The notes below the pieces were generated by a model. The model was given only the letters and a program-made list of their open reading frames with translations. It was not told the DNA's origin and did not search any database. DNA of 64,000 bases, taken from assembly GCA_900315885.1 (NCBI GenBank), contig ONAT01000002.1, forward strand, positions 28,776-92,775. The letters are read 5' to 3'. This DNA comes from an uncultured Erysipelotrichaceae bacterium. GTDB taxonomy: Bacteria > Bacillota_I > Bacilli_A > RFN20 > CAG-826. Position 1 is the first letter of the stretch. The number at the start of each line of letters is the position of its first letter. Made by a program: the position numbers and the translations under genes. Of this stretch, positions 5,114-36,062 are shown piece by piece.

Positions 5114-5734
5114 TTATCCTAATCTTGGCGAATAAGAATAAAGTGCTATCATATTATAAATCTTGTATTCATATGATTTCACACTTCCCTCAATAGTATT
5201 AATTTCGATGTCTTCTTCGCGATATATTCCGTATAGTATAGTGTCATCTAAAATATCGTAAATACTTGTGAAGGATTGATCTTCATTAATTACAAACTCT
5301 ATATCATTTCTTCTGATAATCATATCAGATTCGTTATTTTGAGTAATTAAATCAACTTCTTCACCATGTGATCCTGGTGGACATTTTTTAGTTAACGAAA
5401 TTTCCATAACGCTTGCTTCATCTACTTTTGCTTCATTGATTAAAGTTTTATCTTCATCTTCATAGTAAACTTCCAAGTAATCACCTGCTACAACATTAGA
5501 AATTATATTATTGGATTTCTTAGAATGCAAAGTTAAATTCGCAGATGAACTTAAAACATTATTCACTGAATATGATACGCATCTTGTTTCCTCGTCGTAA
5601 TTGACATCTACGTACATTCTTTCCATGTTTTCAGTTTTACTTTGAGATTCACCGCCACCTGTTTTATCACAAGCAAAAAGGATTGGTAAGCATAATGCTA
5701 AACATAATAGACCAAGTGATTTTCGATTTTTCAT
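5114..5734 (-). CDS. Lipoprotein, member of the tandem paralog family.
   Basis: Signal peptide with lipobox LFAC-D. About 75 percent identity by eye to the 208 aa paralog. Probable start at the internal Met (MKNRKS) with RBS GGGGGA. Confidence 0.7.
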   Translation of the reverse strand: MKNRKSLGLLCLALCLPILFACDKTGGGESQSKTENMERMYVDVNYDEETRCVSYSVNNVLSSSANLTLHSKKSNNIISNVVAGDYLEVYYEDEDKTLINEAKVDEASVMEISLTKKCPPGSHGEEVDLITQNNESDMIIRRNDIEFVINEDQSFTSIYDILDDTILYGIYREEDIEINTIEGSVKSYEYKIYNMIALYSYSPRLG

Positions 5735-6168
5735 ATGTTTTCCCCCATACATAGTTTATTCTTCAATTCCTATTTAAATACATTTTTATTTAATTCAATG
5801 AAATTGAATACCTCCTAAGTTGTTTTCATTTTAACACATTTTATTGCATCTGGCAAATATTTTTTAGCAGGCTTAAAAAATGAAAGATATCTTAAGCTTA
5901 GTATAATTATTGATAAAAAATCGATAATCAATGCTTTTTAGTCACATTCCATTTTACATTATTAACACTCTGTCATTTTTTTAAAATACATTTAACAAAA
6001 AAAGCCCAGTGAGCAAGTCACTAGACTTTTTAAGGTGTATTAAAGTTTTACTATGTCTTATATATTCTATCAATTGTCTTTTGTGAAAAGACAAATAACT
6101 TTTCAAAAAAGAGTCTACTTATATTCGTACATTAAATGTCTTTTATTTATAGACTCCCTTTGGATGAA

Positions 6169-6795
6169 TTATCCTAATCTTGGCGAGTAAGAGTAAAGTG
6201 CTATCATATTATAAATCGTGTATTCATATGATTTCACACTTCCCTCAATAGTATTAATTTTGATGTCTTCTTCGCGATATATTCCGTATAGTTTAGTATC
6301 ATCTAAAATATCGTAAATACTTGTAAAAGATCCATCTTCGTTAATCACGTATTCTACGTCACGTGCCTGTATTAATTTGTTGTCATCATTATCTTCTGAA
6401 AGATAATTAATTTCCATCCCTTGAGATCCTGGTGGGGATTTTTTAATTAACGACATTTCCATAATACTAGCTTCATCTACTTTGATTTCATCAATTACTG
6501 TTTTATCTTCGTCTTCATAGTAAACTTCCAAGTAATCTCCCGCCACAACGTTAGAAATTACATTGTTTGTTTTTTTAGAATACAAAGTTAAATTAGTGGA
6601 TGAACTTAAAACATTATTCACTGAATAAGTTACTTTGTCTGTTTCAGTATCATAACATGCGTCAACATACAATCTAGTCATCTTATCACTAAGATTGTCA
6701 TTTTTGTTTTCGCTTGCGTTAGAATTTGAAACACCACAACTAAACATACCAATAGAACATGCCATTAAGCAAAAAAGACGTAAAACTTTTTTCAT
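6169..6795 (-). CDS. Lipoprotein, member of the tandem paralog family; co-transcribed with the upstream secreted peptidase.
   Basis: Signal peptide MKKVLRLFCLMACSIGMFSCG (lipobox). C-terminal ~170 aa nearly identical to the 212 aa paralog. Start is 3 nt after the peptidase stop. Confidence 0.7.
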   Translation of the reverse strand: MKKVLRLFCLMACSIGMFSCGVSNSNASENKNDNLSDKMTRLYVDACYDTETDKVTYSVNNVLSSSTNLTLYSKKTNNVISNVVAGDYLEVYYEDEDKTVIDEIKVDEASIMEMSLIKKSPPGSQGMEINYLSEDNDDNKLIQARDVEYVINEDGSFTSIYDILDDTKLYGIYREEDIKINTIEGSVKSYEYTIYNMIALYSYSPRLG

Positions 6796-20491: not shown

Positions 20492-22390
20492 TTATTTGAG
20501 GTTATTTTGATTAATAACATCAACAATCAACGACCATTTCGTTGAGTTATCTTTATAATCTAATGGGTAAACATAATATAAGAATTCATCATTATAGCAC
20601 TCAAATTCTTTGCCTATAGCGAATGGTAAGGCATGTAAATTATTATAAGGAATGAAAAATTCTTCATCATTTTTCATTTTCCCTATAAATCTAAATCCAT
20701 TTTCATCTAAATAGCATGTTCCTTTTCCGCGTTCATCAAACTTTTTGTTTTTTATTGAAAGCTTTTTAACTTTTACTGGAACACTCATCTTGTTTGTAAC
20801 TAAATCTAAATTGTCTTTTTCATATCCATACATCCACTTATAGTAATCATGAATGTTACTAAACTTCATTTCATTTTCTTTAAAAGAATAATTATCATCT
20901 ATTTCTAATGTAAAATTACATTCTTTACAATAAATAATATTTCCATTTGTTTGCATTACATGCTCATGATGACATTTTGGGCAACGATAAAAAACCTTAT
21001 CTAAACCTTTCGCTTTTTGATTGTTTTTATATATAATATTCTCTTTTTTAGCATATGCGAAATCATTATACGATAAGCTTTCATCAATTATATTATCAAT
21101 TTCTTCATAACTTAAAAGATTAATTTGTTCTTTATTTAAAATACGTTTAGTTTCAATTTTAATAGGAGCACGCATAAATTTTTTACGCCACTTTGGTTTT
21201 GATAAATACGCTCCATTAATAGTAACAAGGACCACAGGAATTTCTAATTTTTTAATCAATTTACCAGTTTCTAACGTTGATTTATAATTAACACCATCAA
21301 CAGAAAGACGTCCTTCCGGACACATGATTACTGGAAATCCTTGCTTAACACTCTTAATAATTAAACGAATTGTCTCAAAATCAGGAGAAAATAGTTTTTT
21401 AGGAATTACACCCATTTGACGCAAGAGATGGTTATTAATTTTCTTTCGAAAAAAGTCACGATTTAACACTAATGCAAAGCGTTGAGGATATAATTTGTCT
21501 GTCAAATAGAAAACATCAAAGAATGATGGATGATTAGTAAGTAACAAATATGGTCCTTGAATCTTTTCTATTTCTCTAGTGTCAAACTCAATTTTTCCTG
21601 TTCTTTTAGAAATAAAGGACGCCATCTTTTTAAATACGCTATATAAAACAGAATTTGGTGTACCACGTCCTTCTTTAAAAAATAGACGATCCATTATTGT
21701 GAAAATTATTATAAACAAAATAATCATCGCTAGAATTACTATTAAAACTAACCAAACTATTGAAATATTAAGTCTTAAAAAATATTTAATCATTTCTCCT
21801 ATAAATAATGAAGATAAAATTGAAGGTAAAACACCTAAAAGAGAAACAATTAAATAACGCCAATAAGAAATTTTAGTTGATGAACCAAAATAACATATTG
21901 CACCAATTGGTAAAACAGGCAAAAAGAATAATAAAAGCATTAATGATTGAACGCCTTGATTACTCTTTTTTCTTTTTGCTATATCTTCGATTTGTTTTGC
22001 GTTATTTGCAAACATAGCGTTTCCATCAAATTTAAACAAGTGCACTAGAAGGTAAATAACTGAAGCGCCCACAAACACACCAAATAAGCATATTAAAATT
22101 GCTAATAGTGGTGGATAAGCAATACATGCAGACATTTGAATAAATTCTGTAGGCAAAAAAACAGCAATCATTTGGAGTGATTCAATTAAAACAATTAAAA
22201 GTACGCCAATAAATCCTTTTTCTTTTAAAAAGTTCGCGGCGCCTTCTTGATCATTATTTTTTTGAAAAGAAAAGATTTTAAATAAAATATCTTTTAAAAA
22301 AACAACTAAAAGAGCAATAGTAACAATTGCTAGGAAAATAACGATAAACTTTTTAAATGGGTTCTTCTTTTGTTTCATTTTAAATCTCAT
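20492..22390 (-). CDS. Tri-domain membrane protein: N-terminal DedA/VTT (TVP38-like) domain, lysophospholipid acyltransferase (PlsC family) domain, C-terminal zinc ribbon.
   Basis: Multiple TM helices in the first ~230 aa. Acyltransferase motifs LLLTNHPSFFD (H-x4-D) and MCPEGRLS (PEGTR-like). C-terminal YRCPKCHHEH...YCKECNF is a C4 ribbon. Confidence 0.65.
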   Translation of the reverse strand: MRFKMKQKKNPFKKFIVIFLAIVTIALLVVFLKDILFKIFSFQKNNDQEGAANFLKEKGFIGVLLIVLIESLQMIAVFLPTEFIQMSACIAYPPLLAILICLFGVFVGASVIYLLVHLFKFDGNAMFANNAKQIEDIAKRKKSNQGVQSLMLLLFFLPVLPIGAICYFGSSTKISYWRYLIVSLLGVLPSILSSLFIGEMIKYFLRLNISIVWLVLIVILAMIILFIIIFTIMDRLFFKEGRGTPNSVLYSVFKKMASFISKRTGKIEFDTREIEKIQGPYLLLTNHPSFFDVFYLTDKLYPQRFALVLNRDFFRKKINNHLLRQMGVIPKKLFSPDFETIRLIIKSVKQGFPVIMCPEGRLSVDGVNYKSTLETGKLIKKLEIPVVLVTINGAYLSKPKWRKKFMRAPIKIETKRILNKEQINLLSYEEIDNIIDESLSYNDFAYAKKENIIYKNNQKAKGLDKVFYRCPKCHHEHVMQTNGNIIYCKECNFTLEIDDNYSFKENEMKFSNIHDYYKWMYGYEKDNLDLVTNKMSVPVKVKKLSIKNKKFDERGKGTCYLDENGFRFIGKMKNDEEFFIPYNNLHALPFAIGKEFECYNDEFLYYVYPLDYKDNSTKWSLIVDVINQNNLK

Positions 22391-22528
22391 TTCTATATTT
22401 TTTATTTTATCAAAATTTTATAAATAAGTCGATAATTTAGTTTATGACTTATTTAGTGTTTAGTTTACGACTTCTTAAGATATTTGTTTTTAATCTTAAA
22501 ATATAGTAAAATATGGTAGGTGTTAGAA

Positions 22529-23272
22529 ATGGAACAAAAAAAATTTACTGTAAAATTCGCAGAAACTAAAGAAGAGTTAGATGCAACTTTTGCTTTAAGA
22601 TACAAAGATATGATTTTAGAATACAATTCGGAATCTCAAAACGAACAAAAACGTGATAGAAATATTTTTGATGATATTGCAAAGCAAATCATAGTTATAA
22701 ATAACGAGACAAATGAAGTAATAGGCTGTTATCGTTTAATAGATAATGCATTTTTTAATAAAAGCATTAGCACTTTTACATGTGAAAACGAATTTAATAT
22801 TTCAAAAATTAAGAATTCTGGTCATCGTATTTGCGAATTATCACGTGCGGTAATAAAAAATGAATATCGCACTGGTGTTCCGCTTATTTTATTATGGAAA
22901 TTTATCTATGATTACGCTATTAAAAACTCCATTCGTTTTCTTTTAGGAGATGCAAGCTTTTTTGGAATTGAACCTTCTAAACATATTCATTCTCTATCTT
23001 ATTTAGCACATTATCACGCTATTGAGAATGAATTTGAAGTCACTTCGCTCGAAGTGAACCCACAAATCAAGCTTCTAAAAAAAGAACATATTAATGTTGA
23101 TGAAGTAAAAAGCAACCTTCCACCTTTAATAAAGGCATATCTAACTTTCGGCTCTAAATTTTCAAAAGAGTATTTTATTGATCGCGATTTTAAAAGTATT
23201 GATGTCTTTACATTACTTGATTTTGAAAATTGTAATTTAAAATTATTAAAAAAATATCTACGTGTCGCCTAA
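22529..23272 (+). CDS. GNAT-family N-acyltransferase of the hemolysin/OlsB/GlsB-like class (Acetyltransf_5-like).
   Basis: Size and pattern (FTVKFAETKEELDATFALRY; CYRLID; ICELSRAVIKNEYR; LLWKFIYDYA) match the aminoacid N-acyltransferase family. Divergent from the PlsC-family acyltransferase. Probable start at the internal Met MEQKK (track ORF starts at 22520). Confidence 0.55.
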   Translation: MEQKKFTVKFAETKEELDATFALRYKDMILEYNSESQNEQKRDRNIFDDIAKQIIVINNETNEVIGCYRLIDNAFFNKSISTFTCENEFNISKIKNSGHRICELSRAVIKNEYRTGVPLILLWKFIYDYAIKNSIRFLLGDASFFGIEPSKHIHSLSYLAHYHAIENEFEVTSLEVNPQIKLLKKEHINVDEVKSNLPPLIKAYLTFGSKFSKEYFIDRDFKSIDVFTLLDFENCNLKLLKKYLRVA

Positions 23273-23310: not shown

Positions 23311-23913
23311 ATGGAAAAAAAGTTGATTGGCATACCCATACGAAAATATAAAGATTTAAAAACCGATGTTATCGGCATATATGCCCGTTATCTAGATTAT
23401 TTTGAAAGCAACAATTTAATTGTTGTCTTTTTGACGTTAAACAATTATAAATATCTTATTAATTCTTTATCTTGCCTTGCACTTATTGGTGGGGGAGATG
23501 TTAATGCTAAGATATATAATTCTCTTGATACACTTGATTATGACTATGAACTAGATAAACTTGAATTTTTATTAATAAAAGAGGCTCTTGAACGCAAGTT
23601 ACCTATTTTTGGTATATGTCGAGGCTTACAAATTCTTAATATATATTTTGGTGGAACCTTAAAAGAAATCCCTTCTTCACATCTTGGTTTACACAATATA
23701 AAACTTAAAAATGATGTAGTAAAAAGCGTTAATTCTTTTCATCATCTTTGTATTGATAATTTAGCTAGTAATTTTTCGATATTAGCCAAAAGTAATGATT
23801 TCGTAATTGAAGAAATCGAAGACAAAAAAAGGATGATATTTGCCATACAATATCACCCTGAAATAAATTTTGATTATGAAGTAATTAATTACTTCTTATC
23901 ATATTTGCGTTAA
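23311..23913 (+). CDS. Class I glutamine amidotransferase-like / peptidase C26 gamma-glutamyl hydrolase (PuuD-like).
   Basis: Nucleophile elbow FGICRGLQILN; His-Glu in AIQYHPE. Confidence 0.7.
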   Translation: MEKKLIGIPIRKYKDLKTDVIGIYARYLDYFESNNLIVVFLTLNNYKYLINSLSCLALIGGGDVNAKIYNSLDTLDYDYELDKLEFLLIKEALERKLPIFGICRGLQILNIYFGGTLKEIPSSHLGLHNIKLKNDVVKSVNSFHHLCIDNLASNFSILAKSNDFVIEEIEDKKRMIFAIQYHPEINFDYEVINYFLSYLR

Positions 23914-25971
23914 TTAATAACGCATAATATAGCCACCAGATTTTGTAATCTCATCATAAGCATTATCCATCAATTGATAATCATAACGCTTATTTTCAAA
24001 GTTTTTATAAACTTCGTCATAAGGAATACCAGATACACTTTCAACAGTTTTGCTAACTAAATCAAATAGTTCATCTAGACCATCAAATGAAGTAATGCAT
24101 GAGTGGTATTTTAATTCTGAATCACCGTCAGAATCTTTGTAATAAAGATTTTTACTATTAAATACTTTTGTTCCATCATCTTTATAAGTAATCAAACTCT
24201 TTTTCATTGGCACATAGCCATTAACAATCATATTTGCGTTCCATCTATTATGTTCTTGATACGCCATCGCATTTCTTAAAGATAAAGTATGTGAGAAATG
24301 AGTAGGATATACAATATTTCCATCTTTTCTTTGGATCTCTTTAAAATTATCATAAATTTTAAAATATTCTTCGCGACTTATAGCTTTACTCTTATCATCT
24401 GTGACTTGTAGGCCCATCATACCTAATTTTTGTAAAATAGAAATAACAGAATCAGAATTGCTACGTTTTTTATCAACATCTAATTTTTTCCATACTTCGT
24501 TAATGGTTAATTTAGTATTTGGATTTCTTTCTTTTTCGTAATTGTACGCTCTTGCTTTCGCACTACCTAAAAGTTTTTCATTAATGATAACATCTTCATT
24601 AATGACACTTTCGACTGTGCCAAATGGAATTAAGCCATTATCTTTAATAATGCTTTCATAACGAGCGTTATCGATTTTTACATAAATATTTGTGTTAGAC
24701 TTAACATTCCATTCATGAAGTTTTTCTTTTAAGCGCAGAGCTAACTCGACATTTTGTAAATCATCACCAAATGAGATAATAAAAGCATTAAATCCATTAG
24801 TAATAGAGACACAATTATGTATCTTTTTATAGAAATCGAAATTATTAATGTCTAAATGTTCAAATGTTGTATTACTTATTTGATCACATCTTGGGAAATA
24901 TTCATCATTAATATCAAGATATTCCATTCTCTTAATGGTGTGATTAAAAAGATTATCTTCAATGTTGTTTTTATCAAAAATATAATAATTTACTGGTTTC
25001 CCGACGAATTTATCGTTTTTAATCGTAATAAATTGATAGAACTTAACAAGATTTAAATATAATGTTTTATTTGTGCCCCCAAAGCCGATTAAGAAGGCAT
25101 TAATTTTACTATCCGCATTAACTGTTCCTGTTTTAGTATCAAGTATTTTACCAAATGAATGTGAAAAATTATTGGATGAAACAAATAAATCACTTGTTAA
25201 TTGATGTTTATTAAAGAAATGAATATTTAAATTTGTGCCTTTAATCATTTTCTTTATTAAGTACCAGTTCTTATCTTTAATTAAGAAATATGAGTCATTT
25301 TCAAATTTTGAAAGATAATCAATAAGTTTGTATTGCTTTAATATGTCTTCTTCAAAAGAAATAAAGATATTATTTTCTTTGGCAAAGCGTTTCAAATCTT
25401 CAACTTTATTAATAATTGCAACATGCTTCTTTTCGTGCATTAATTCATCTTTAATTTTTTTATCTTCACTACTTAATAAAATGTAGACTCTCTTTTTCGT
25501 AGATTTTATAAAAGTTTTCGCATTTTCGTTATAGCCTAAAACCACTAATGAATTCTTTTTGATGATTAAATTTTTAAAGAAATTAACAATTTTATTAAAA
25601 AATAAATCAATAACTAAAGAGAATGTTATATAGGCGTAAAGTAACGCAACAACATAATATGCACATTCAAAATATGTGTTTTGTAAAGCCTGAGTCAAGT
25701 TACCTCTTGAAACATTGAGAGTTATCATTTTAAAACTATTATAAATAGAGTCAAAAATGATAATTAGAGGATTACCTACACCTTCATAGATATAACCACT
25801 TATCAATAAAGTAATAGATATGATAAAAAGAGGGACATAAAAAGAAGAATATTCTTTTAAAAAGAGATGCTTCTCTTTTATTATTTTATAAATTAATAAA
25901 CATAATAATGTAAAATCTAAAATGCAACAAATAATCGATATAATAGTCATTATTGAAGTCCTCCTGGACAA
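23914..25971 (-). CDS. Integral membrane protein (4-5 N-terminal TM helices) with two Rossmann-like (RCK/TrkA-N or SLOG-like) domains and a C-terminal RyR-like domain; candidate effector for the upstream TIR proteins.
   Basis: TM segments in aa 1-130. Glycine-rich beta-alpha starts LVVLGYNENAKTF and AFLIGFGGTNKTLYL. C-terminal MAYQEHNRWNANMIVNGYVP resembles the RyR repeat core (A..EHNxW......GW/Y). Start overlaps the 3' end of the TIR gene by about 20 nt. Confidence 0.45.
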   Translation of the reverse strand: MSRRTSIMTIISIICCILDFTLLCLLIYKIIKEKHLFLKEYSSFYVPLFIISITLLISGYIYEGVGNPLIIIFDSIYNSFKMITLNVSRGNLTQALQNTYFECAYYVVALLYAYITFSLVIDLFFNKIVNFFKNLIIKKNSLVVLGYNENAKTFIKSTKKRVYILLSSEDKKIKDELMHEKKHVAIINKVEDLKRFAKENNIFISFEEDILKQYKLIDYLSKFENDSYFLIKDKNWYLIKKMIKGTNLNIHFFNKHQLTSDLFVSSNNFSHSFGKILDTKTGTVNADSKINAFLIGFGGTNKTLYLNLVKFYQFITIKNDKFVGKPVNYYIFDKNNIEDNLFNHTIKRMEYLDINDEYFPRCDQISNTTFEHLDINNFDFYKKIHNCVSITNGFNAFIISFGDDLQNVELALRLKEKLHEWNVKSNTNIYVKIDNARYESIIKDNGLIPFGTVESVINEDVIINEKLLGSAKARAYNYEKERNPNTKLTINEVWKKLDVDKKRSNSDSVISILQKLGMMGLQVTDDKSKAISREEYFKIYDNFKEIQRKDGNIVYPTHFSHTLSLRNAMAYQEHNRWNANMIVNGYVPMKKSLITYKDDGTKVFNSKNLYYKDSDGDSELKYHSCITSFDGLDELFDLVSKTVESVSGIPYDEVYKNFENKRYDYQLMDNAYDEITKSGGYIMRY

Positions 25972-26945
25972 ATGTAATTGTTTTCAAATCCTTCTTTTTC
26001 TAATATCTTAAATAAACCTTTTGATTGACGTTTAGGAAGGGTAAAATAAACCCTATTTGTCGTGCCTGAATCACTAATGGAAATATCAGTAAGTCCAGCA
26101 TTTTGCAATAATTTAATAAATTGTTCCTTAATCATTGAATCGTAAATATCGACAAAACATTTAAATGTTACACCATACATGTTACTTACAAGAATTAAAT
26201 AAGTAACAGTATAATTATCAATTGAATAATTATCATATACTTTATTTAAAATAACGATTTCTTTACTTGTTTTTTTTGGTAAATCAATGAAAGGACAATG
26301 TTGATGTGCCATATAAAATTTGCAAAAACAATCATCTAATTCTTCACCGTTTTTATAACAGACTCGATTAGTTTCTGTGATGTATTGACGATACATTTGT
26401 GGAACGATAAATTGAAATTGATAAGAATAACGTGGAATTTTTTCAATTCCAGGAATCGCAATTTTTAAAGAAACATAACCTAGTTTACCTAATACTTCTT
26501 TGTTAAATTCTTCTTTTGTTAATAAATTTGATTCAGCTTCAAACAAATCAGAAAATAATGTGTTCTTTTTTAATTCTTCTTTTAATAAAGCTAAATCATC
26601 AATATATGTGGCATTTGGTAAAAATGACTTTTTAGTGCCTTTAAAAACATATAATTTTTTATGCATGGAAATTAAACGACCTATTTCAAACATAGTCCAA
26701 GGCGTATTAATATCTCCAACAATCACCGCACATGTTGATTTCGCAATCATTTCATTAATGCGGTTATAAAAATCTTGAGTCTCCGCATTTAATAACTTAT
26801 CAGATAAAATATTAACTTCATCTCCACAATAAGCGATAATCTCATTTACTAATTCTTCGTTTGCCCGAGCGTAACTTAAAAACACTCCAACTTCTTTTTG
26901 TTGGTCTGCACTTATTTTAGTAATTTCTAAATTTAATTCACCCAT
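25950..26945 (-). CDS. TIR-domain protein (N-terminal TIR, roughly aa 18-110) with a ~200 aa C-terminal domain of unknown function; paralog of the upstream gene.
   Basis: Box-1 VGVFLSYARANEE (aa 19-31). Beta-C CAVIVGD. Alpha-C helix TPWTMFEIGRL has W83 and putative catalytic E87 in the S-x-W-C-x-x-E-L position. The C-terminal region (GVTFKCFVDIYD..KEQFIKLL..RVYFTLPK) is paralogous to the 359 aa neighbour. Confidence 0.6.
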   Translation of the reverse strand: MGELNLEITKISADQQKEVGVFLSYARANEELVNEIIAYCGDEVNILSDKLLNAETQDFYNRINEMIAKSTCAVIVGDINTPWTMFEIGRLISMHKKLYVFKGTKKSFLPNATYIDDLALLKEELKKNTLFSDLFEAESNLLTKEEFNKEVLGKLGYVSLKIAIPGIEKIPRYSYQFQFIVPQMYRQYITETNRVCYKNGEELDDCFCKFYMAHQHCPFIDLPKKTSKEIVILNKVYDNYSIDNYTVTYLILVSNMYGVTFKCFVDIYDSMIKEQFIKLLQNAGLTDISISDSGTTNRVYFTLPKRQSKGLFKILEKEGFENNYICPGGLQ

Positions 26946-26956
26946 AAAGTTACCTC

Positions 26957-28036
26957 CTATTTCGGATAAAAATAGTTGACAGTTTCACTATATTCTTCTT
27001 TAACATCATCTTTGGCATCATAGAATAATCTGCCATCTTCAATATTAAGTGGGAAATACACTCTAACTTTATCATCAACAATCTTTTTTACGATTTGTTC
27101 TTTCTTTAATCCATCATCCACTAAAATAGTGACTAAATCACTTGGTGTAATGTCGTTATCTTGAATTTCAAAGAAAGGTAAGAAAGTAACACCTAATATT
27201 TCGTTATTTGGCACTACGAATTCCATCTTAATTGAACCAACTAAATCAGTTGGATCAACTTCTTCGCCACATTCAATTTTCTTAAAAGTTTTAATTTTTG
27301 AAAACATACTGCGAAGTGGAAAATCTAAATCAAGACGTTTCATTTCTTGATGATATGGCCAATAGCCAATATTTTCAAAACTTATTTTTTGTCCAAAATG
27401 CAATACTCTAATGCCAGTCATAACTGATTCTTCTAGCATTGTGTAAACATCATTAAGCGTGATATCATCACGTACTTTACTTAATCTTTCATATATTTTT
27501 AATAACGAATTATATCTTAAATCGAGCATAACGACAAATTTAACATAAAAAATACGATTACGAGTGTAGCAATCTATCGACTCATCTTTAAAAATGTTAA
27601 GAGGCAACGTGATAAAGTTTTTGACCGCTTCAATAACTTTTTCTTTACTAGAAAGTTGTACATCTCTAATTGGTGACTTAGAGAAAAGATTAAGACTTTC
27701 TGGACTTAATCCTGCATTATAAAGCATTAATTTCTTACCAATTAAAACTCCTGCTTCATGCATTGTGTAGTTATACATTTGAGGGTCATTAAGTGTTTCA
27801 TCATCAAGAACAATAATACCAACATCGGCTTTTAAACAGTTATAAATAGATTTTTCGACTAGAAAATCATTATCAAGATTTTCTTTACTTTTAACATATA
27901 AATAATAGTTAAAACCATATTTATCGAGTTCGTTTAAAAATTCACGGCATTCTTCAAGCTTATTTTCATTTAAACTAATATAAAGCAATAACCGTTTTCC
28001 TGGATTTCTAATTTCTCTTTTAGACGCAAGGAACAT
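26957..28036 (-). CDS. TIR-like domain protein (divergent N-terminal TIR or flavodoxin-like fold) with the same C-terminal domain as the downstream paralog.
   Basis: LLLYISLNENKLEE (box-1-like), GIIVLDDETLNDPQMYNYTMHEAG (beta-C plus helix with E94). C-terminal GVTFLPFFEIQDND..KEQIVKKIV..RVYFPLN aligns to the 331 aa paralog. Confidence 0.45.
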   Translation of the reverse strand: MFLASKREIRNPGKRLLLYISLNENKLEECREFLNELDKYGFNYYLYVKSKENLDNDFLVEKSIYNCLKADVGIIVLDDETLNDPQMYNYTMHEAGVLIGKKLMLYNAGLSPESLNLFSKSPIRDVQLSSKEKVIEAVKNFITLPLNIFKDESIDCYTRNRIFYVKFVVMLDLRYNSLLKIYERLSKVRDDITLNDVYTMLEESVMTGIRVLHFGQKISFENIGYWPYHQEMKRLDLDFPLRSMFSKIKTFKKIECGEEVDPTDLVGSIKMEFVVPNNEILGVTFLPFFEIQDNDITPSDLVTILVDDGLKKEQIVKKIVDDKVRVYFPLNIEDGRLFYDAKDDVKEEYSETVNYFYPK

Positions 28037-29639: not shown

Positions 29640-30563
29640 CTAAATCTCATTATTCATTTCGTTTTCGTTTTGATTTTTGATTAACATTGTCATTGCTTCA
29701 ATGTAATTTTGTAATTTTTTTAATGCCTCAATTTGTATATCGACAATATTGATACTCTCTTTTGCAAATATTGATTTATACATATTGATTTTCCAATCTT
29801 TGATTAAAATAAATAAGTTATCATCAAATAAAACAAGACATAAATTTGTTTTAATAAAATTTTGGAAATCATATAATTCTTTAATTATTTGATAATTTAA
29901 AACGGTATATATTTTGTTATCAAGTGTGGCGTAAAGAGCAAAATTTTTATCATAAAGATAACTATTATTCATCGTTCCTAATCCATATTGTTTTAAATTT
30001 TTTTCGTTATAGGAAAGTTTACCTTTCTTATTGTCATTGCGTAAAATAATCATTTCATTGTAAAGAAAATCTATTTTTGTTTTTATTAACACATCATATT
30101 TATCTTTATCGTGCTTCAATTGAAATAAATCAAAATAAGCTCGACTAGAGGTTTGCGTAAAAGAATACACTTCTTTAAAATCATTAATAAGAATGTAATC
30201 TTTAATGAATTTACGTTCGACATCATTTAGCCCATTAGTGTTTTTGAAAAGTGCTAAACCATCAAGCATTGCTTCATTTTCTAAAAGTGTTTGATGGAAA
30301 ATTTTATATTTCTTATTTAAATGAAAATACATAAGAATAAAAGATATGACACTTAACACAAAGGCTAAAGTTATAAAAATAATAACAGAACTAATATTTG
30401 AGGCACTATCATAAACCCATTTCAAATGTGGATTTAAGAAAGTATAAAAAGCATAAGCAAGCGCGGTCACAAAAAGCATAGCGAAAAGAACGACCAAGAA
30501 TAATTTAAACTTGTTCAAGCGTTTCTTATTCCTTATTTTTTTGCTTGCATAACTTAATTCCAT
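29640..30563 (-). CDS. Membrane protein of unknown function (two N-terminal TM helices plus a ~220 aa soluble domain), sitting where JetD would be.
   Basis: TM helices FKLFLVVLFAMLFVTALAYAF and ISSVIIFITLAFVLSVISFILMYF. Start assigned to the internal Met MELSYASKK with RBS GGGGAGA (track ORF starts at 30590). No recognisable Toprim or other catalytic motif. Confidence 0.4.
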   Translation of the reverse strand: MELSYASKKIRNKKRLNKFKLFLVVLFAMLFVTALAYAFYTFLNPHLKWVYDSASNISSVIIFITLAFVLSVISFILMYFHLNKKYKIFHQTLLENEAMLDGLALFKNTNGLNDVERKFIKDYILINDFKEVYSFTQTSSRAYFDLFQLKHDKDKYDVLIKTKIDFLYNEMIILRNDNKKGKLSYNEKNLKQYGLGTMNNSYLYDKNFALYATLDNKIYTVLNYQIIKELYDFQNFIKTNLCLVLFDDNLFILIKDWKINMYKSIFAKESINIVDIQIEALKKLQNYIEAMTMLIKNQNENEMNNEI

Positions 30564-30614
30564 ATTCTCCCCAATGTTAAATAAGACCAACTAAAAGCGT
30601 TGGTCTATTTAATT

Positions 30615-33600
30615 TTATTTAGCAAAAGATACTTTTTCTTCTTCTGCGTATAATCTTACACGAGATGTGTTCTTATCGTGTAATACTACTAATGTTTCAT
30701 CAACTAATTCAGAAATATCGGCAATCTTATCAGATGGAGCACTGAGAATAGCTTGTAAGCCGAATTTACGTAATAAACGAATTGATTCCGTAATACGACC
30801 TTTATCCATCTTAGAGAAGGCTTCATCAAAGATGATAAGACGTGTGGAATTTCCAAGTTCACCTGGATCATTGACGCGATATAATTGAGCAAAACTTGCT
30901 AAAACTGCAATGTAGAAAGGAGTTTGTGTTTCACCACCACTCTTTTTCTTGATCATTTTAGAAAGACGTTGTTCTTGTCCTTCTTTGTTTGTAACGATTA
31001 AGTCAAAGTCTAAATAGGAACGATAATCTGTAAATTTTTCAACATTTGCAGCTAATTGAGCTGTTTTATCACCATGATCACCGACATCAACGATTTGTCT
31101 AAATAAATCGTTCATAACTTCAGAATATTTTTCAATAAAGGCTGATTCATCTTCGCCAACTTGAAGTAATAAGTCATCTTTAATCATATCGTAGTAACGA
31201 TGATATAGTTGACTTGGCTTACATGTAAAGCGATAGGAGTCGTTACCAAAGCGAGATTGTGATAAAGCATCATTTAAATCTTCAATTTGTGTTTCAACAC
31301 CTTCGATAGCGCTTCTTAATTTAGAGATGAAGTCATCTTTAAATTGCTTTGTTGCCTTATTATAAGCATCGTTAATTGCGATACGATAATGTGGTAATTT
31401 AATATCGCGCAAATCAGATAATTCTTTTTCGTAAGCATCATTATCTTTTTGGTCAGTATCATATGATAAACGATAATCTTTAACATAATCACGACGTAAT
31501 TTCACAACACTATTGAAAATCGTTTGAGCGCGGTATTGCACTTGTGAGTATTTAGCTTGGAAATCAGCAATAATGTCAAGTGGTGACTTACCTTCCACGA
31601 TTAATTGGTTAAATAGTGGCTCTGCTTCTTCGGCGACAACAAAAGCATCATAATTCTCTTTTAAGTGATTTTCTCTTTCAAGAGTTTTATTCTTTGTTTC
31701 AGGTATTTTTTCTTCTTTTAATGTCTTAATTTGCGTATTGAGTTGTCCACGTTCTTCATACAAACTTTGACGTTCATTTTCAAGATTCTTGATATCATCT
31801 TCGACATCTTTAATACGACGATCAAAGCTTTCAATTTGTGTGACATCGTGTTTAGATAACTCATCATCACAATAAGCAATTGTTTGTTTAAGTCCATCGA
31901 CATTTCTTGAAGCTTCAATTAGCGCAAGTGTTGTATTACTTTCATTAGTGTTAATTGATTCTAAGGATGCAGCTTCAGAAATATCTTTATGCACTTCTCT
32001 TAACATAGCAACGAGATGGTTGTTACGGTCAAGTTCTGCACGTTTTAAAGCAATTTGTGCTTCGTTAACACTTCTTCCAATATAAGAAGGTGTGTATAAA
32101 CGAGGGTTGATTTTTCCCATTGCAAAATTACGATAAATATCACAATCAGGAGTAATACCATTCATAGATTCACGAGCTTCTTGAGGATTACGACATTTCA
32201 TCAAACGCCCAATCAAGAAGTTAGTATAACATCTTGCTCCTTCATGGTCCGTTATAATTTCTTCTGCTAAAGAATTCTTCTCACAAGAATAATTTCTTTC
32301 AATAATCTTTTCTTGGTCAACAAGTGTTGTGCCATAGAAATGATTCTTAGCAAGTAAGTCACGTAAGATTTCGTAAGCATCTAAATAATATCTGCCATCA
32401 ACAAATAAATTGAATTTTTGGCTGTGTAAGAAACCTTCGATAGCGTTAATCCATTTTGGTGACTTAATATCAATCAAATCAGCATAAAGAGAAACAGTAA
32501 TTGGTTTACCATATTTCTCAGTTAACCTTCTTTGTAATTCATTTTTAATCATTACAAGGTTACGATCATAAGACTTTGTACCATTTCTTAAATCTGCTTC
32601 TTCCGCACGGAGTTGAGCGGATTGACGGTCAAAGTTTGTAATTGTACGACCTAAAGATACACTCATCGCTGAAACAAGTTTTTTGAACTTATCAAGCGAA
32701 TCACGCCACTCTTTCAAAATCATACTATCTAATGTTTCAATATGTGGTAATTCGTTATCGCGTAAATTTGTGGAAGTACGGACAACTAATTCAGCACATT
32801 CTAATAATTCATTAAATTCATAAGCGCGGTCATCATTTAAAATTGATTTATCAAGAGTTGATAACTTATTAACAATGTTAGAAGCTACGTTAATAAAGTC
32901 ATTCGCGTATTTTGTTAAATTGTTTTTAACAGCCTCCGCATCTTTATTTAAAGCCGCTAATCTTTCAATCGCAGCCTTACGTTGCTCTCTTAATTCATCA
33001 GTAAGTCGATAAGTATCATTACTTGCCTTATCTTGAATGAGACGAGTTTTACGACGATTAAGTTCAGCTATATTAACATCAATATCTGCTAATTCGTTTT
33101 CAATTTCTAACAATCTAGTTTGCGCATTACCAATTGAATCTTCATAAGATTTTAAACGATTCAATTCCATTTGTAATTCGGCTTTTTCGACAACATATCC
33201 ATAAATACTCATATTGTGGAAATTAGTCTTATAAGCTTCATAAGATTTTTCAATTTCTTCTAATCGCTCAACACGAAGTCCCATAATGAGAGCTTCATTT
33301 TCTAAACGTTTATATTGCAAAATGTTTTCTTGCATTGAATCGATAGAAATATTAGCTTGTGAATCACAAATATATTCTGTAATGAAAGTTGTAATATCGG
33401 TAATTGGGGTAAAGGAAACAGCTTTTTTGAAAAGTGAGAAATACTTGTCTTTAATATTTCCAAACTTTTTCTTTAACAATTCTTGATATTGTTTATTTGT
33501 ATCTAAGAACTTAAAGTTTCTTTCACCATAAGTTTCGGCAAAATACTTAGCCAATGTTTTAAAGTCCATTGGAATATTATTTTTAATAAATTCATTTTCT

Positions 33601-34013
33601 GGAATTTTATCTTCTAATAAGAAATAACGATGTTCTTCGCTTCCATCATCATATGAATCAAAGACAATACCTAAAGTAAATGATTTGTCATTTAAGTCAT
33701 CATAGAATTCCATAGCGATATAGGAAGTAAAGCGTCCATCACGTAAATACTTGAAACCACCATCTTCGGAATCACCTAATTCTCCACGAAGGTATCCTTT
33801 TAAAGTACGAGAAGATTTTTCACTCGCTGCTTTATTAAAGAAACGTCCAGAAGTATCGCCTAACAAAACGACTTGCATCGCATCAATAAGTGTTGATTTA
33901 CCAGAAGCATTAAGACCTGTTAAGAAAACAATTGGTTCAATGTTAATTGTTTCGTTCCAAAAATAGTGCCAGTTAATGATTTTAATTTTCTTGAGAGATT
34001 TCATCTGGCTCAC
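30615..34013 (-). CDS. SMC-like ABC ATPase of the MukB/MksB/JetC class (Wadjet JetC-like).
   Basis: N-terminal IKIINWHYFWNETINIEPIVFLTGLNASGKSTLIDAMQVVLLGD (Walker A preceded by the NW..F element typical of MksB/JetC). Long central coiled coil. C-terminal signature SGGETQTPFYIAVLASFAQLY and Walker B LIIFDEAFSKMD. 1132 aa. Confidence 0.75.
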   Translation of the reverse strand: MSQMKSLKKIKIINWHYFWNETINIEPIVFLTGLNASGKSTLIDAMQVVLLGDTSGRFFNKAASEKSSRTLKGYLRGELGDSEDGGFKYLRDGRFTSYIAMEFYDDLNDKSFTLGIVFDSYDDGSEEHRYFLLEDKIPENEFIKNNIPMDFKTLAKYFAETYGERNFKFLDTNKQYQELLKKKFGNIKDKYFSLFKKAVSFTPITDITTFITEYICDSQANISIDSMQENILQYKRLENEALIMGLRVERLEEIEKSYEAYKTNFHNMSIYGYVVEKAELQMELNRLKSYEDSIGNAQTRLLEIENELADIDVNIAELNRRKTRLIQDKASNDTYRLTDELREQRKAAIERLAALNKDAEAVKNNLTKYANDFINVASNIVNKLSTLDKSILNDDRAYEFNELLECAELVVRTSTNLRDNELPHIETLDSMILKEWRDSLDKFKKLVSAMSVSLGRTITNFDRQSAQLRAEEADLRNGTKSYDRNLVMIKNELQRRLTEKYGKPITVSLYADLIDIKSPKWINAIEGFLHSQKFNLFVDGRYYLDAYEILRDLLAKNHFYGTTLVDQEKIIERNYSCEKNSLAEEIITDHEGARCYTNFLIGRLMKCRNPQEARESMNGITPDCDIYRNFAMGKINPRLYTPSYIGRSVNEAQIALKRAELDRNNHLVAMLREVHKDISEAASLESINTNESNTTLALIEASRNVDGLKQTIAYCDDELSKHDVTQIESFDRRIKDVEDDIKNLENERQSLYEERGQLNTQIKTLKEEKIPETKNKTLERENHLKENYDAFVVAEEAEPLFNQLIVEGKSPLDIIADFQAKYSQVQYRAQTIFNSVVKLRRDYVKDYRLSYDTDQKDNDAYEKELSDLRDIKLPHYRIAINDAYNKATKQFKDDFISKLRSAIEGVETQIEDLNDALSQSRFGNDSYRFTCKPSQLYHRYYDMIKDDLLLQVGEDESAFIEKYSEVMNDLFRQIVDVGDHGDKTAQLAANVEKFTDYRSYLDFDLIVTNKEGQEQRLSKMIKKKSGGETQTPFYIAVLASFAQLYRVNDPGELGNSTRLIIFDEAFSKMDKGRITESIRLLRKFGLQAILSAPSDKIADISELVDETLVVLHDKNTSRVRLYAEEEKVSFAK

Positions 34014-34620
34014 CTACTTTCAATTGTTCTAAAGCTTCTGACATTGCTTTAATCTTTTGGTTATCAACCGCAAATAAGATACTTGGTAAAATATAGAATG
34101 CGACGTTACCTTCGTCATAAGATCCACTAACTTTAGCGATAATATTATGATTAGCTAAGAAACGCAGTGACTTAGCGAATAAACGACCACTCATTCTTTT
34201 ACCTGACATCGTAATATTATGGTCAATCATTGTTTTTAATAAAGTTGGAGTAGTGATATAAATCGCTTCACCAGTTTGGCTTGATTCATTTTTCTCAGTT
34301 TCATAAATTAAACGTAAGACAAATAAGATAAGTGATGTTTCTCTTTCCATTCTTAATCTATTTTGCTCGTTAAGATTAATCAAAGCTACAACACCATTAA
34401 GGACATCTTTTTCCATCATCCAATTAGTGTATTTTAAATAGTCATTTATTAAATCAAAGTGGCGTTCAATAAAACGATAATCAGGATTAATACGCATTGC
34501 TTTTTCTTTGTTATCAAATACATCACGTACAATGAAAGATTTTAAAAGCAATGTATTAGTAACACGTGCGAATTCGTTTTGTTCGCCATTTGATAATTTT
34601 TCAAATTCAGTTTCAAACAT
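33982..34620 (-). CDS. JetB/MksE-like protein (DUF4194-like size and position).
   Basis: 212 aa acidic protein; its stop overlaps the SMC-like gene start and its start overlaps the 480 aa gene stop. Assigned by operon position and size only. Confidence 0.45.
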   Translation of the reverse strand: MFETEFEKLSNGEQNEFARVTNTLLLKSFIVRDVFDNKEKAMRINPDYRFIERHFDLINDYLKYTNWMMEKDVLNGVVALINLNEQNRLRMERETSLILFVLRLIYETEKNESSQTGEAIYITTPTLLKTMIDHNITMSGKRMSGRLFAKSLRFLANHNIIAKVSGSYDEGNVAFYILPSILFAVDNQKIKAMSEALEQLKVGEPDEISQEN

Positions 34621-36062
34621 TATTCAGTTTTCTCCTTTCGTTTAAACACAAGTTTTGGTAAAACATAACCTTGAGAAAGGACATGTCCATCGTCGGAATA
34701 ATCTACTTCGTAGAAGCAATCATCATCATTACGATTTAAAGTTGCAAGAATTAAGAGAATAAAGGCATCGTAGTCTGGTAAAGGTATCTCCTCTGCTCTC
34801 ACTTCATCAGCATCACCAAACGCTCTTTCCATAAATTCAAGCACACGCGCACTTGTGAAGACATTACGGGTTTGATCCAAGAAGTTTTGCATAATTAAAT
34901 CGCCAGCTTCTTCAAAGTTATTGACAATTGGTAACGGTTCTCCTATTTCACGATATTGACGGATAATTGGCAGAGTTATTGAATCTGGATCAATATATCC
35001 TTGTTCGTGGAACATGAGAGCATCTTGCATTGAAGTTAAGATATTGCGCAAGTCTTTCGAACCATTTCCCGCCATTGCATCGGCATTCGCTTTTGCGTAA
35101 GCTTTAAATATAGTTTCCAAGTGACCTTTAATTGTCTTATCGTTATTGTTGAAATAAACAATTTTAGAAGCACTAGATTTGGTGTATTCGCTATGACTTG
35201 CATCAATTTGACTAATCATACCATTTAATTGTTCATACATATCTTGTATGTAATTTATCATGTTAATTAAATCCGCTTCTGCTTTTCCATAGTCGCGACT
35301 CTTTCTTAAAATCAAAGATTGCTCAATGAGCATTTTTCTTGTTTTTTCATCACGTAACCACTTTTGTAAAATGGAGGTTATTGGTCTTTTAAAACGAGTG
35401 ACAGAGTCAAATGTTTTCAAAGGGTGATAGAGTCTATCAGAAATACGTACTTTATAATCATCAAAGTGATTAGCAAGAACTTCATTTGTTGTAAACAAGT
35501 TTGATAGGCGATGTTGATAGATTTTAATTTGGTGTCCCAAAGTAACTAACTCAATACGAAGTTTTTTCGTATTTTCATAAGCTCTCAATAAAGTCACATA
35601 CATTAAATCATCTGGGTCATCATCTTCTAATTTCAATTCACTATACGTTGAGTGAACAAGAGAGTTATATGCCGCTTCTGATTCACTATTAATATCTTTT
35701 AAGCACGCAAGCATTTTAATAGAATACGAAGGCAGAATAATATATTCTTCAAACGATTCAGGATCTATTTGTACATCAATCCATCCAGTCTCTTCAAGTC
35801 TACGGAGAATGAATGCAGCACGACTAGGCAAAGTTGGATTTGCAAGAGCGTCATCTTCTGTGCCTTCTTCTGACATATCTAGACTCATAACTAGGTCAGT
35901 GGCATTCTCTTTTAAGATGCGCAAGAAATCTTGCTTTTTAATCGTCATCTCTTCAGTTTCTAGGCTCTTATATAATACTTCTAGAGCCATAGCGTATACT
36001 TCTTTATTTTTACTAGATAGGATTGAGAAAAAGTTGGTAGGAATTATATCAAATAATCGCAT
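34620..36062 (-). CDS. JetA/MksF-like (kleisin-like) protein (DUF3375-like size and position).
   Basis: 480 aa, first gene of the triad, gene order jetA-jetB-jetC as in Wadjet / MksFEB. Assigned by operon position and size only. Confidence 0.45.
   Translation of the reverse strand: MRLFDIIPTNFFSILSSKNKEVYAMALEVLYKSLETEEMTIKKQDFLRILKENATDLVMSLDMSEEGTEDDALANPTLPSRAAFILRRLEETGWIDVQIDPESFEEYIILPSYSIKMLACLKDINSESEAAYNSLVHSTYSELKLEDDDPDDLMYVTLLRAYENTKKLRIELVTLGHQIKIYQHRLSNLFTTNEVLANHFDDYKVRISDRLYHPLKTFDSVTRFKRPITSILQKWLRDEKTRKMLIEQSLILRKSRDYGKAEADLINMINYIQDMYEQLNGMISQIDASHSEYTKSSASKIVYFNNNDKTIKGHLETIFKAYAKANADAMAGNGSKDLRNILTSMQDALMFHEQGYIDPDSITLPIIRQYREIGEPLPIVNNFEEAGDLIMQNFLDQTRNVFTSARVLEFMERAFGDADEVRAEEIPLPDYDAFILLILATLNRNDDDCFYEVDYSDDGHVLSQGYVLPKLVFKRKEKTE

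Follow-up and report, generated by a model that had tools for sequence, protein, structure and literature searches.

A candidate amino-acid-lipid locus pairing an OlsB-like N-acyltransferase with a DedA-acyltransferase fusion in an uncultured Erysipelotrichaceae bacterium

Introduction

A 64,000-nucleotide stretch of DNA from an uncultured Erysipelotrichaceae bacterium (contig ONAT01000002.1; hereafter the window) carries two divergent genes that raise a simple question: does this organism build a membrane lipid from an amino acid? One gene, on the plus strand (22529-23272), encodes an N-acyltransferase of the GNAT type (hereafter GNAT). The other, on the minus strand (20492-22390), encodes a polytopic membrane protein of 632 amino acids (aa) in which a VTT/DedA domain, a PlsC/Aas-type acyltransferase domain, a zinc ribbon and a PH-like domain are fused. 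A preliminary description of this DNA likened the two genes to the N-acyltransferase and O-acyltransferase pairs that synthesize ornithine lipids (OlsB and OlsA) and glycine lipids (GlsB and GlsA). Our analysis leads to a more guarded answer. We estimate a probability of roughly 0.45 that the divergent genes encode, as a whole chain, a two-step pathway to an amino-acid lipid in which a translocator is built into one of the enzymes.

A probable OlsB-family N-acyltransferase

The window is AT-rich (GC 26-34%, about 29%), and both open reading frames (ORFs) are taken to be real genes rather than products of chance because each has many homologues. Specifically, word-indexed searches returned 54 homologues of GNAT and 77 of the fusion, and an exhaustive HMMER search with the fusion, limited to E <= 1e-30, yielded 344 clusters (50% identity). 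The GNAT gene starts with an ATG at 22529 and stops at 23270-23272, and this start is supported by the homologues, every one of which begins at the same M-x-x-E/K-K/R-F. The coordinates and strand given in the preliminary description stand; its length of 248 aa becomes 247 aa plus the stop codon.

Profile searches with PF13444 and PF01553, suggested in the preliminary description, gave matches above the gathering score for both families. GNAT matches PF13444 (Acetyltransf_5) at E 7.7e-19; its 68.7 bits exceed the gathering score of 22.4, and the alignment covers profile positions 1-102 of 102. It also aligns over the full length of the NCBIfam OlsB equivalog models NF052554 (E 4e-46, 157.8 bits) and NF052555 (E 1e-40, 139.8 bits), which agrees with its earlier placement in the PF13444/OlsB branch. 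Weaker scores were obtained with OlsF (38.7 bits, cut-off 620), an exosortase-associated N-acyl synthase (37 bits) and the GlsB equivalog NF053696 (22.5 bits against 300), and every one of these NCBIfam scores, including those for OlsB, lies well under its curated cut-off. The GlsB alignment covers a fragment only, with no stretch that passes alone, and the GlsB-like character once offered as an alternative to OlsB is therefore negligible. The family alignment contains 24 invariant columns, among them E103 and R106 in the motif ICELSRAVIK. Together, these data make it very probable that GNAT is an N-acyl amino acid or lyso-aminolipid synthase of the OlsB family that falls outside the OlsB equivalog, and its sequence predicts dependence on acyl-acyl carrier protein (acyl-ACP).

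Sequence searches of the PDB with the protein and with the family profile returned nothing meaningful, and fold comparison alone gave matches. An AlphaFold2 model of GNAT, built with 29 homologues in the alignment, reached a predicted local distance difference test (pLDDT) score of 93.8, and its top Foldseek matches in the PDB are FeeM (2G0B, E 1.5e-6), LasI, BjaI and MesI; no OlsB structure is among them. The modelled fold is of the FeeM/N-acyl-homoserine lactone (AHL) synthase type, the branch of the GNAT fold that contains long-chain acyl-ACP/coenzyme A N-acyltransferases.

Could the protein then be an AHL synthase, or a 'hemolysin', as such proteins are sometimes named in databases? The predicted fold resembles those of LasI, BjaI and MesI almost as well as that of FeeM. 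Regardless, this identity is very improbable, since the Pfam autoinducer-synthase model (Autoind_synth) has no match in the protein, PF13444 and the full-length OlsB models match it instead, and no LuxR-type gene was found nearby. The FeeM Pfam model comes just below threshold (25.2 bits against 27). Thus, the grouping with hemolysins or autoinducer synthases that had been named in advance as a result that would speak against an aminolipid role was not observed.

A DedA/VTT-acyltransferase fusion with a conserved C-terminal region

Both ORFs of the divergent arrangement reported earlier were found, separated by 138 base pairs (bp). The minus-strand gene had been described as a PlsC-family acyltransferase with H-x4-D and PEG motifs. 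The family (PF01553) and the motifs are indeed present, but the protein is no plain PlsC, since its acyltransferase forms just the middle domain of the VTT fusion. Residues 1-240 (21671-22390, minus strand) comprise a basic N-terminus, an extra transmembrane helix and the VTT/DedA domain, with about six hydrophobic segments. Within this region, residues 79-199 match PF09335 (VTT/DedA) with 54.7 bits against a gathering score of 33.9, over profile positions 1-122 of 123. Hydropathy peaks begin at residues 14, 61, 98, 150, 180 and 211, and an AlphaFold2 model built on 38 homologues (overall pLDDT 86.6) shows helices in this region. The N-terminus carries seven lysine or arginine residues and the linker that follows the membrane segments carries six, so that both are probably cytoplasmic. 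Because the N-terminus and this linker, which precedes the PlsC domain, are strongly basic, the active site of the acyltransferase is predicted to face the cytoplasm, where it would have access to acyl-ACP.

The acyltransferase domain (residues 241-440; 21071-21670, minus strand) belongs to the PlsC superfamily and scores 30.5 bits against the PF01553 gathering score of 23. Its two signature motifs, NHPSFFD (residues 286-292; nucleotides 21515-21535) and PEGR (residues 358-361; nucleotides 21308-21319), are invariant across the 38 homologues. No AMP-binding or major facilitator superfamily (MFS) domain was found in the fusion by Pfam. The acyltransferase domain is followed by a C-terminal region, conserved and about 190 aa long, that consists of two modules. 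The first is a C4 zinc ribbon (residues 470-491; 20918-20983, minus strand) of the form CPKC...CKEC, with a weak A2L_zn_ribbon match, whose cysteines C470, C473, C488 and C491 are all invariant in the 38 homologues. The second (residues 500-632; 20495-20893, minus strand) is a beta-sandwich with a C-terminal helix, modelled at a pLDDT of about 90 and carrying the conserved motif FE.Y...YYFYP. Foldseek matches it to PH, EVH1 and PTB folds, weakly by E-value (0.02-0.4), with probabilities of 0.9-1.0 and TM-scores of 0.45-0.63.

Among the best 150 of the 344 fusion clusters, full-length fusions (600-660 aa) account for about 45, and about 100 consist of smaller proteins (380-430 aa) whose match is limited to residues 245-630; the shorter proteins thus comprise the PlsC domain, zinc ribbon and PH-like domain without VTT. 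Because most of these 150 clusters lack VTT, the fusion represents a subgroup of a sizeable uncharacterised family. NCBI names one relative only 'VTT domain-containing protein', and a literature search turned up no paper that describes a fusion of DedA/VTT to an acyltransferase.

Which acyltransferases are nearest to the middle domain? BLASTP aligned the fusion with E. coli Aas (27% identity over 128 aa, E 3e-6), pairing PEGRLSVDG with PEGRITTTG, and gave no alignment with E. coli PlsC. At the position of motif II, PlsC has FxxR; the fusion is unlike it there and has G-x-IPKKLFSPD, as Aas has FVPLDPTQP. These observations bear on the idea that the 632-aa protein is simply the organism's lysophosphatidic acid acyltransferase, furnished with extra domains and unrelated to GNAT. 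This idea draws on the intact HX4D and PEG motifs, on the absence of a second PlsC-like ORF from the 64-kb window (a small sample of the genome) and on the best Foldseek match of the domain in the PDB, PlsC of T. maritima (5KYM, E 9e-6, TM-score 0.67), a resemblance at the superfamily level only. We nevertheless consider it improbable. In addition to the failed PlsC alignment and the Aas-like motif II position, the PlsC model TIGR00530 scores 22 bits against a cut-off of 102.95, and one relative (locus L112) carries two paralogues side by side, which would be unusual for an essential single-copy PlsC.

Recurrent linkage of the N-acyltransferase to the VTT/PlsC family

If GNAT and the fusion act together, then their relatives might be expected to meet in other genomes. 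We scanned the surroundings of GNAT relatives using one genome per GTDB species, which yielded 30 loci with identities of 33-49%. The relatives come mostly from metagenome-assembled genomes (MAGs) of gut Clostridia, Christensenellaceae and Oscillospiraceae, with a few from Acholeplasmataceae, Bacilli and Bacillales and one from a MAG labelled Corallococcus sp. The adjacent pair is present in the window, in L103 (GNAT 52% and fusion 50% identical to those of the window), in L104/L105, in L020 and in L018, and is absent from about 24 other GNAT loci, with a VTT gene nearby in L024 and L025.

The arrangements outside the window's own lineage differ from one another. In L020, a Clostridiales MAG, the same divergent full-length pair occurs (GNAT 40%, fusion 31% identical) among different surrounding genes. 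In L018, from Christensenellaceae, a VTT-less gene for the PlsC domain and C-terminal region lies 80 nucleotides upstream of GNAT on the same strand. In L024 and L025, from Acholeplasmataceae and Bacillales MAGs, a stand-alone VTT gene lies two genes upstream of GNAT. The same-strand run there (L024:91-6121; L025:3235-9170) comprises cls, LuxS, DUF554, VTT (242 aa), an Fe-dependent alcohol dehydrogenase (390 aa), GNAT and MscL, and the dehydrogenase beside GNAT might hint at an amino-alcohol head group. Near GNAT genes, therefore, VTT alone, the PlsC domain with its C-terminal region alone, and both of these fused are all observed, which is a Rosetta-stone pattern.

When the neighbours within two genes on either side of 29 GNAT loci were clustered by BLASTP, the VTT/PlsC-plus-C-terminal family was the sole family to recur across unrelated contexts. 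A rough neighbor-joining tree of the PlsC-plus-C-terminal region places the GNAT-linked members at three separate positions: L020 is basal to the VTT-fusion clade, the window and L103 are sister to L108 and L112, which are linked to a YfcC-type transporter, and L018 falls in a VTT-less clade. A rough binomial estimate of the chance of three or more such encounters in about 14 independent contexts, with four family genes assumed per 2000-gene genome and four neighbouring positions per locus, gives P ~2e-4.

A different neighbourhood is shared by seven Christensenellaceae MAGs (L008, L010, L011, L017, L019, L021 and L030), where GNAT lies in a fixed block, flanked by FtsK/SpoIIIE and by a coiled-coil protein with a C4 zinc ribbon (PF02591). 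None of these seven loci has a lipid gene next to GNAT.

A possible two-step pathway with a translocator

From the domain identities, motifs, folds and linkage pattern observed here, we infer a plausible chemistry. GNAT would first N-acylate an amino acid using acyl-ACP, probably 3-hydroxyacyl-ACP as OlsB does. Our best guess for the substrate is an amino acid of the ornithine/lysine type, and the product would be a lyso-aminolipid or N-acyl amino acid. The recurrent gene linkage suggests that the cytoplasm-facing PlsC/Aas-type domain could then O-acylate this intermediate to form an acyloxyacyl lipid. Finally, DedA lipid transporters and MprF suggest by analogy that the VTT/DedA domain of the fusion may move the lipid or its lyso form between the leaflets of the membrane. 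The zinc-ribbon/PH-like module may serve to anchor the enzyme, either at the membrane or at a partner.

Several observations weigh against this pathway. On the side of GNAT, the two OlsB scores are less than half of their cut-offs of 350 and 320, and many PF13444 enzymes yield mono-N-acyl amides only (PMC9762135; PMC11631085). On the side of the acyltransferase domain, the best NCBIfam matches are of the Aas type, led by PRK06814 (E 1.5e-9, 36.4 bits against 1349, confined to the acyltransferase region of the fusion). The OlsA models NF052552 and NF052553 have no match in the fusion at E <= 0.01, nor does any GlsA-type model match it, and the relative in L018 reaches 24.5 bits of the 300 set for OlsA. 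By profile, the proposed likeness to OlsA or GlsA is therefore not borne out. The linkage is also sparse: of the 57 immediate neighbours counted beside GNAT relatives (about 29 loci), 2 carry PF01553. In the window's own lineage, as represented by L103, the pair sits in a block that runs from genes for a peptidyl-prolyl isomerase (PPIase), an aminotransferase, dapF and asd to the fusion, GNAT and a C26 hydrolase, and adjacency conserved in this lineage is uninformative because the pair lies inside longer, unrelated housekeeping synteny. Finally, according to a 2026 review, OlsB homologues occur in 'a few' Bacillales and Eubacteriales, and for Bacillota there is no description of an aminolipid, ornithine lipids included; the remark in the preliminary description that such lipids are little documented in Firmicutes agrees with this. 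Species descriptions in Clostridia and Clostridium nevertheless routinely list 'unidentified aminolipids'.

The surroundings of the fusion family point the same way. A metagenome scan from the fusion side brought together about 19 fusions of full length and about a dozen relatives that lack VTT, and none of these loci has a GNAT-family ORF in its flanks. Instead, a transporter of the DcuC family (PF03606) lies directly downstream of the fusion, often overlapping it, in almost every locus with downstream sequence. By NCBIfam, with a below-cut-off match at E 1.5e-46, this transporter is related to the 'putative basic amino acid antiporter YfcC'. The order fusion then transporter was found in L031, L032, L034, L035, L037-L040, L042, L043, L046 and L108-L112 (for example, with the transporter at L108:9883-11298 and L112:6857-8281). 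The YfcC/DcuC partner is missing beside the fusion in the window, L103 and L020. Clearly, GNAT and the acyltransferase do not form an obligate operon.

Two loci of this family add detail. The transporter of L047 (L047:4521-5864) lies upstream of a relative without VTT. In L112 (1432-9733), a same-strand run comprises genes for cardiolipin synthase, a Bud32-like small kinase of 179 aa, a VTT-less PlsC-plus-C-terminal paralogue of 394 aa, the VTT fusion, YfcC/DcuC and a transporter-like protein of 478 aa without a Pfam match. In L018, a homologue of this last protein (5330-6751, 43% identical) is encoded immediately before the PlsC-GNAT pair, which links these loci.

Are the two genes of the window then independent of each other? 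GNAT would in that case make mono-N-acyl amino acids or amines like the N-acyl synthases of the human microbiome, the fusion would serve lysolipid transport and reacylation (repair or scavenging) as an analogue of LplT-Aas working with YfcC, and their adjacency would be inherited synteny. We regard this as a distinct possibility. It is favored by the conserved YfcC/DcuC partner at loci where GNAT is absent, by the acyltransferase domain, for which E. coli Aas and the Aas models are the nearest matches, and by L112, where the fusion keeps company with cardiolipin synthase and an acyltransferase paralogue. Further points in its favor are the lack of an adjacent acyltransferase at most GNAT relatives, the housekeeping block kept around the pair in the window's lineage, and the existence of PF13444 enzymes that make N-acyl ornithine or N-acyl lysine only (PMC9762135). 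However, independence leaves unexplained why VTT or PlsC-plus-C-terminal genes are the sole neighbours of GNAT to recur across contexts, in three further independent arrangements, and neither an acyl-ACP synthetase domain nor an MFS LplT homologue is present.

The N-acyl plus O-acyl logic proposed in the preliminary description thus survives in part. In several contexts that are unrelated to one another, GNAT relatives do adjoin members of this one acyltransferase/VTT family, but most have no adjacent PlsC, and the fusion usually stands with YfcC/DcuC. Because the pair is not an obligate operon, the label 'OlsB/OlsA locus' is too confident. The fusion of DedA/VTT to an acyltransferase and its linkage to YfcC, which lie partly outside that interpretation, are the more novel element.

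Comparison with known systems

The proposed two-step pathway with a translocator can be set beside several characterized systems. According to a 2024 review, aminolipid synthesis combines a PF13444 N-acyltransferase with an O-acyltransferase of the LPLAT family, and new types of O-acyltransferase are expected (PMC11631085). One close counterpart is OlsB/OlsA of Sinorhizobium, Rhodobacter, Brucella and Pseudomonas, with which the locus shares a PF13444 enzyme that aligns over full-length OlsB models, a neighbouring HX4D acyltransferase of PF01553 and, putatively, the logic of N-acylation followed by O-acylation. Unlike OlsA, the acyltransferase of the window has VTT, zinc-ribbon and PH-like domains attached and stands closer to Aas; its gene is divergent from that of GNAT rather than part of an olsBA operon, and the host is low-GC and Bacillota-like. 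The glycine-lipid (commendamide/flavolipin) pathway of Bacteroidota, formed by GlsB and GlsA, employs the same superfamilies and two-step logic in gut bacteria, but the GlsB model finds only its low-scoring fragment here and GlsA has no counterpart among the matches. OlsF, a bifunctional ornithine/lysine lipid synthase, demonstrates that acyltransferase modules of such a pathway can fuse into one protein. OlsF joins an N-terminal O-acyltransferase to a C-terminal N-acyltransferase, whereas in the window the O-acyltransferase is fused to VTT, the N-acyltransferase is separate, and the OlsF score is a small part of its cut-off. Thus, the locus would work like OlsB/OlsA yet fails equivalog membership for OlsB, OlsA, GlsB/GlsA and OlsF.

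Other systems resemble the fusion in its joining of transport to synthesis. LplT and Aas, encoded by separate genes in E. coli and fused in other bacteria (PRK06814), likewise connect a lipid-transporter module to an acyltransferase of the PlsC superfamily; the transporter module of the window is DedA/VTT rather than MFS, the acyl-ACP synthetase domain is not there, and the zinc-ribbon and PH-like domains are additional. MprF, the aminoacyl-phosphatidylglycerol synthase-flippase of Firmicutes and others, makes and translocates an amino-acid-bearing lipid with one polypeptide (PMC11980842). The likeness to MprF is one of analogy only, without homology, as MprF uses aminoacyl-tRNA and phosphatidylglycerol and has a flippase domain that is not DedA. 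Members of the DedA family, such as PetA, UptA and TMEM41B/VMP1, move phosphatidylethanolamine or undecaprenyl phosphate across membranes, PetA acting on the former (PMC10193950). The fusion's N-terminal domain passes the gathering score of their family, but the known members from bacteria stand alone and are about 200-250 aa long, whereas this one is fused to an acyltransferase.

GNAT itself shares its Pfam family and predicted fold with the human-microbiome N-acyl synthases (hm-NAS, PF13444) and with soil N-acyl synthases (NAS) such as FeeM, which are acyl-ACP-dependent amino-acid N-acylases. In contrast to the pathway considered here, hm-NAS and NAS often stop at mono-N-acyl amides, and the FeeM Pfam model remains sub-threshold for GNAT.

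Neighbouring features of the window

The divergent intergenic region (22391-22528, no strand, 138 bp) is AT-rich and presumably contains both promoters. It includes the palindrome ATAAGTC-N15-GACTTAT at 22424-22452, beside a near-direct repeat TAGTTTA(T/C)GACTT. Neither palindromes with 7-bp arms nor promoter-like hexamers on the two strands are in excess over shuffled sequence, and the region with its palindrome is conserved in the 95% relative only (L104/L105), not in L103 or L020. The palindrome could be an operator or could have arisen by chance in AT-rich DNA. With the palindrome at shuffle level and not kept beyond the 95% relative, we make no claim of an operator shared between the two genes. 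An Rfam scan of the window found no RNA.

Downstream of GNAT by 39 nucleotides begins a plus-strand gene (23311-23913) for a class-I glutamine amidotransferase-like protein of peptidase family C26 (200 aa; PF07722, E 1.5e-30). Its catalytic motifs GICRG and HPE are present, and its best NCBIfam match, gamma-glutamyl-CDP-amidate hydrolase, reaches 86 bits against a cut-off of 250. The gene is possibly co-transcribed with GNAT. The GNAT-C26 pair is retained in L103 and L104/L105 and is absent beside more distant GNAT relatives, and the hydrolase was not kept as a member of the pathway, being conserved within the window's own lineage only.

Three consecutive minus-strand ORFs of 685, 331 and 359 aa follow (23914-28036), without a convincing Pfam match (the 685-aa ORF has sub-threshold matches only) and without a PADLOC match. 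The first has N-terminal transmembrane helices and a faint sugar-transferase-like match. The trio is also present in L104/L105, and in L103 the slot is occupied by glycogen synthase and two NTP-transferase genes. Because L103 carries different genes there than L104/L105 and the window, the slot after the GNAT-C26 pair is a variable island.

Further on, the minus strand holds a Wadjet-like operon (29640-36062) with genes for JetA (34620-36062; PF18982, E 4e-96), JetB/DUF4194 (33982-34620) and a JetC-like SbcC/SMC ATPase of 1132 aa (30615-34013). At the place expected for JetD, after the ATPase, is a 316-aa DUF3137 protein with no PADLOC match; the same pair of DUF3137 protein and ATPase occurs in L103.

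Implications

Could the linkage patterns reflect one underlying function? We speculate that the PlsC-zinc-ribbon-PH family, which numbers hundreds of 50%-identity clusters and includes a subset fused to VTT, might carry out acylation and translocation at the heart of an unrecognised membrane-lipid pathway found among Clostridia and Bacilli of the gut. OlsB-like GNATs would serve this pathway in some lineages and YfcC-type transporters, which resemble basic amino acid antiporters, in others, and the fusion would be a natural Rosetta stone for the DedA domain as a dedicated flippase of a newly made, non-phosphoglyceride amino-acid lipid. This broader proposal strikes us as doubtful.

Acyloxyacyl lipids of ornithine, lysine, glycine and glutamine affect stress resistance, resistance to antimicrobial peptides and sensing by the host immune system. 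If the pair in the window does make such a lipid, then the class would extend to abundant uncultured gut Firmicutes, and a second-step enzyme other than OlsA would be identified. Independent of any pathway, a natural fusion of DedA/VTT with a lipid acyltransferase offers a direct and testable handle on the cargo of DedA domains.

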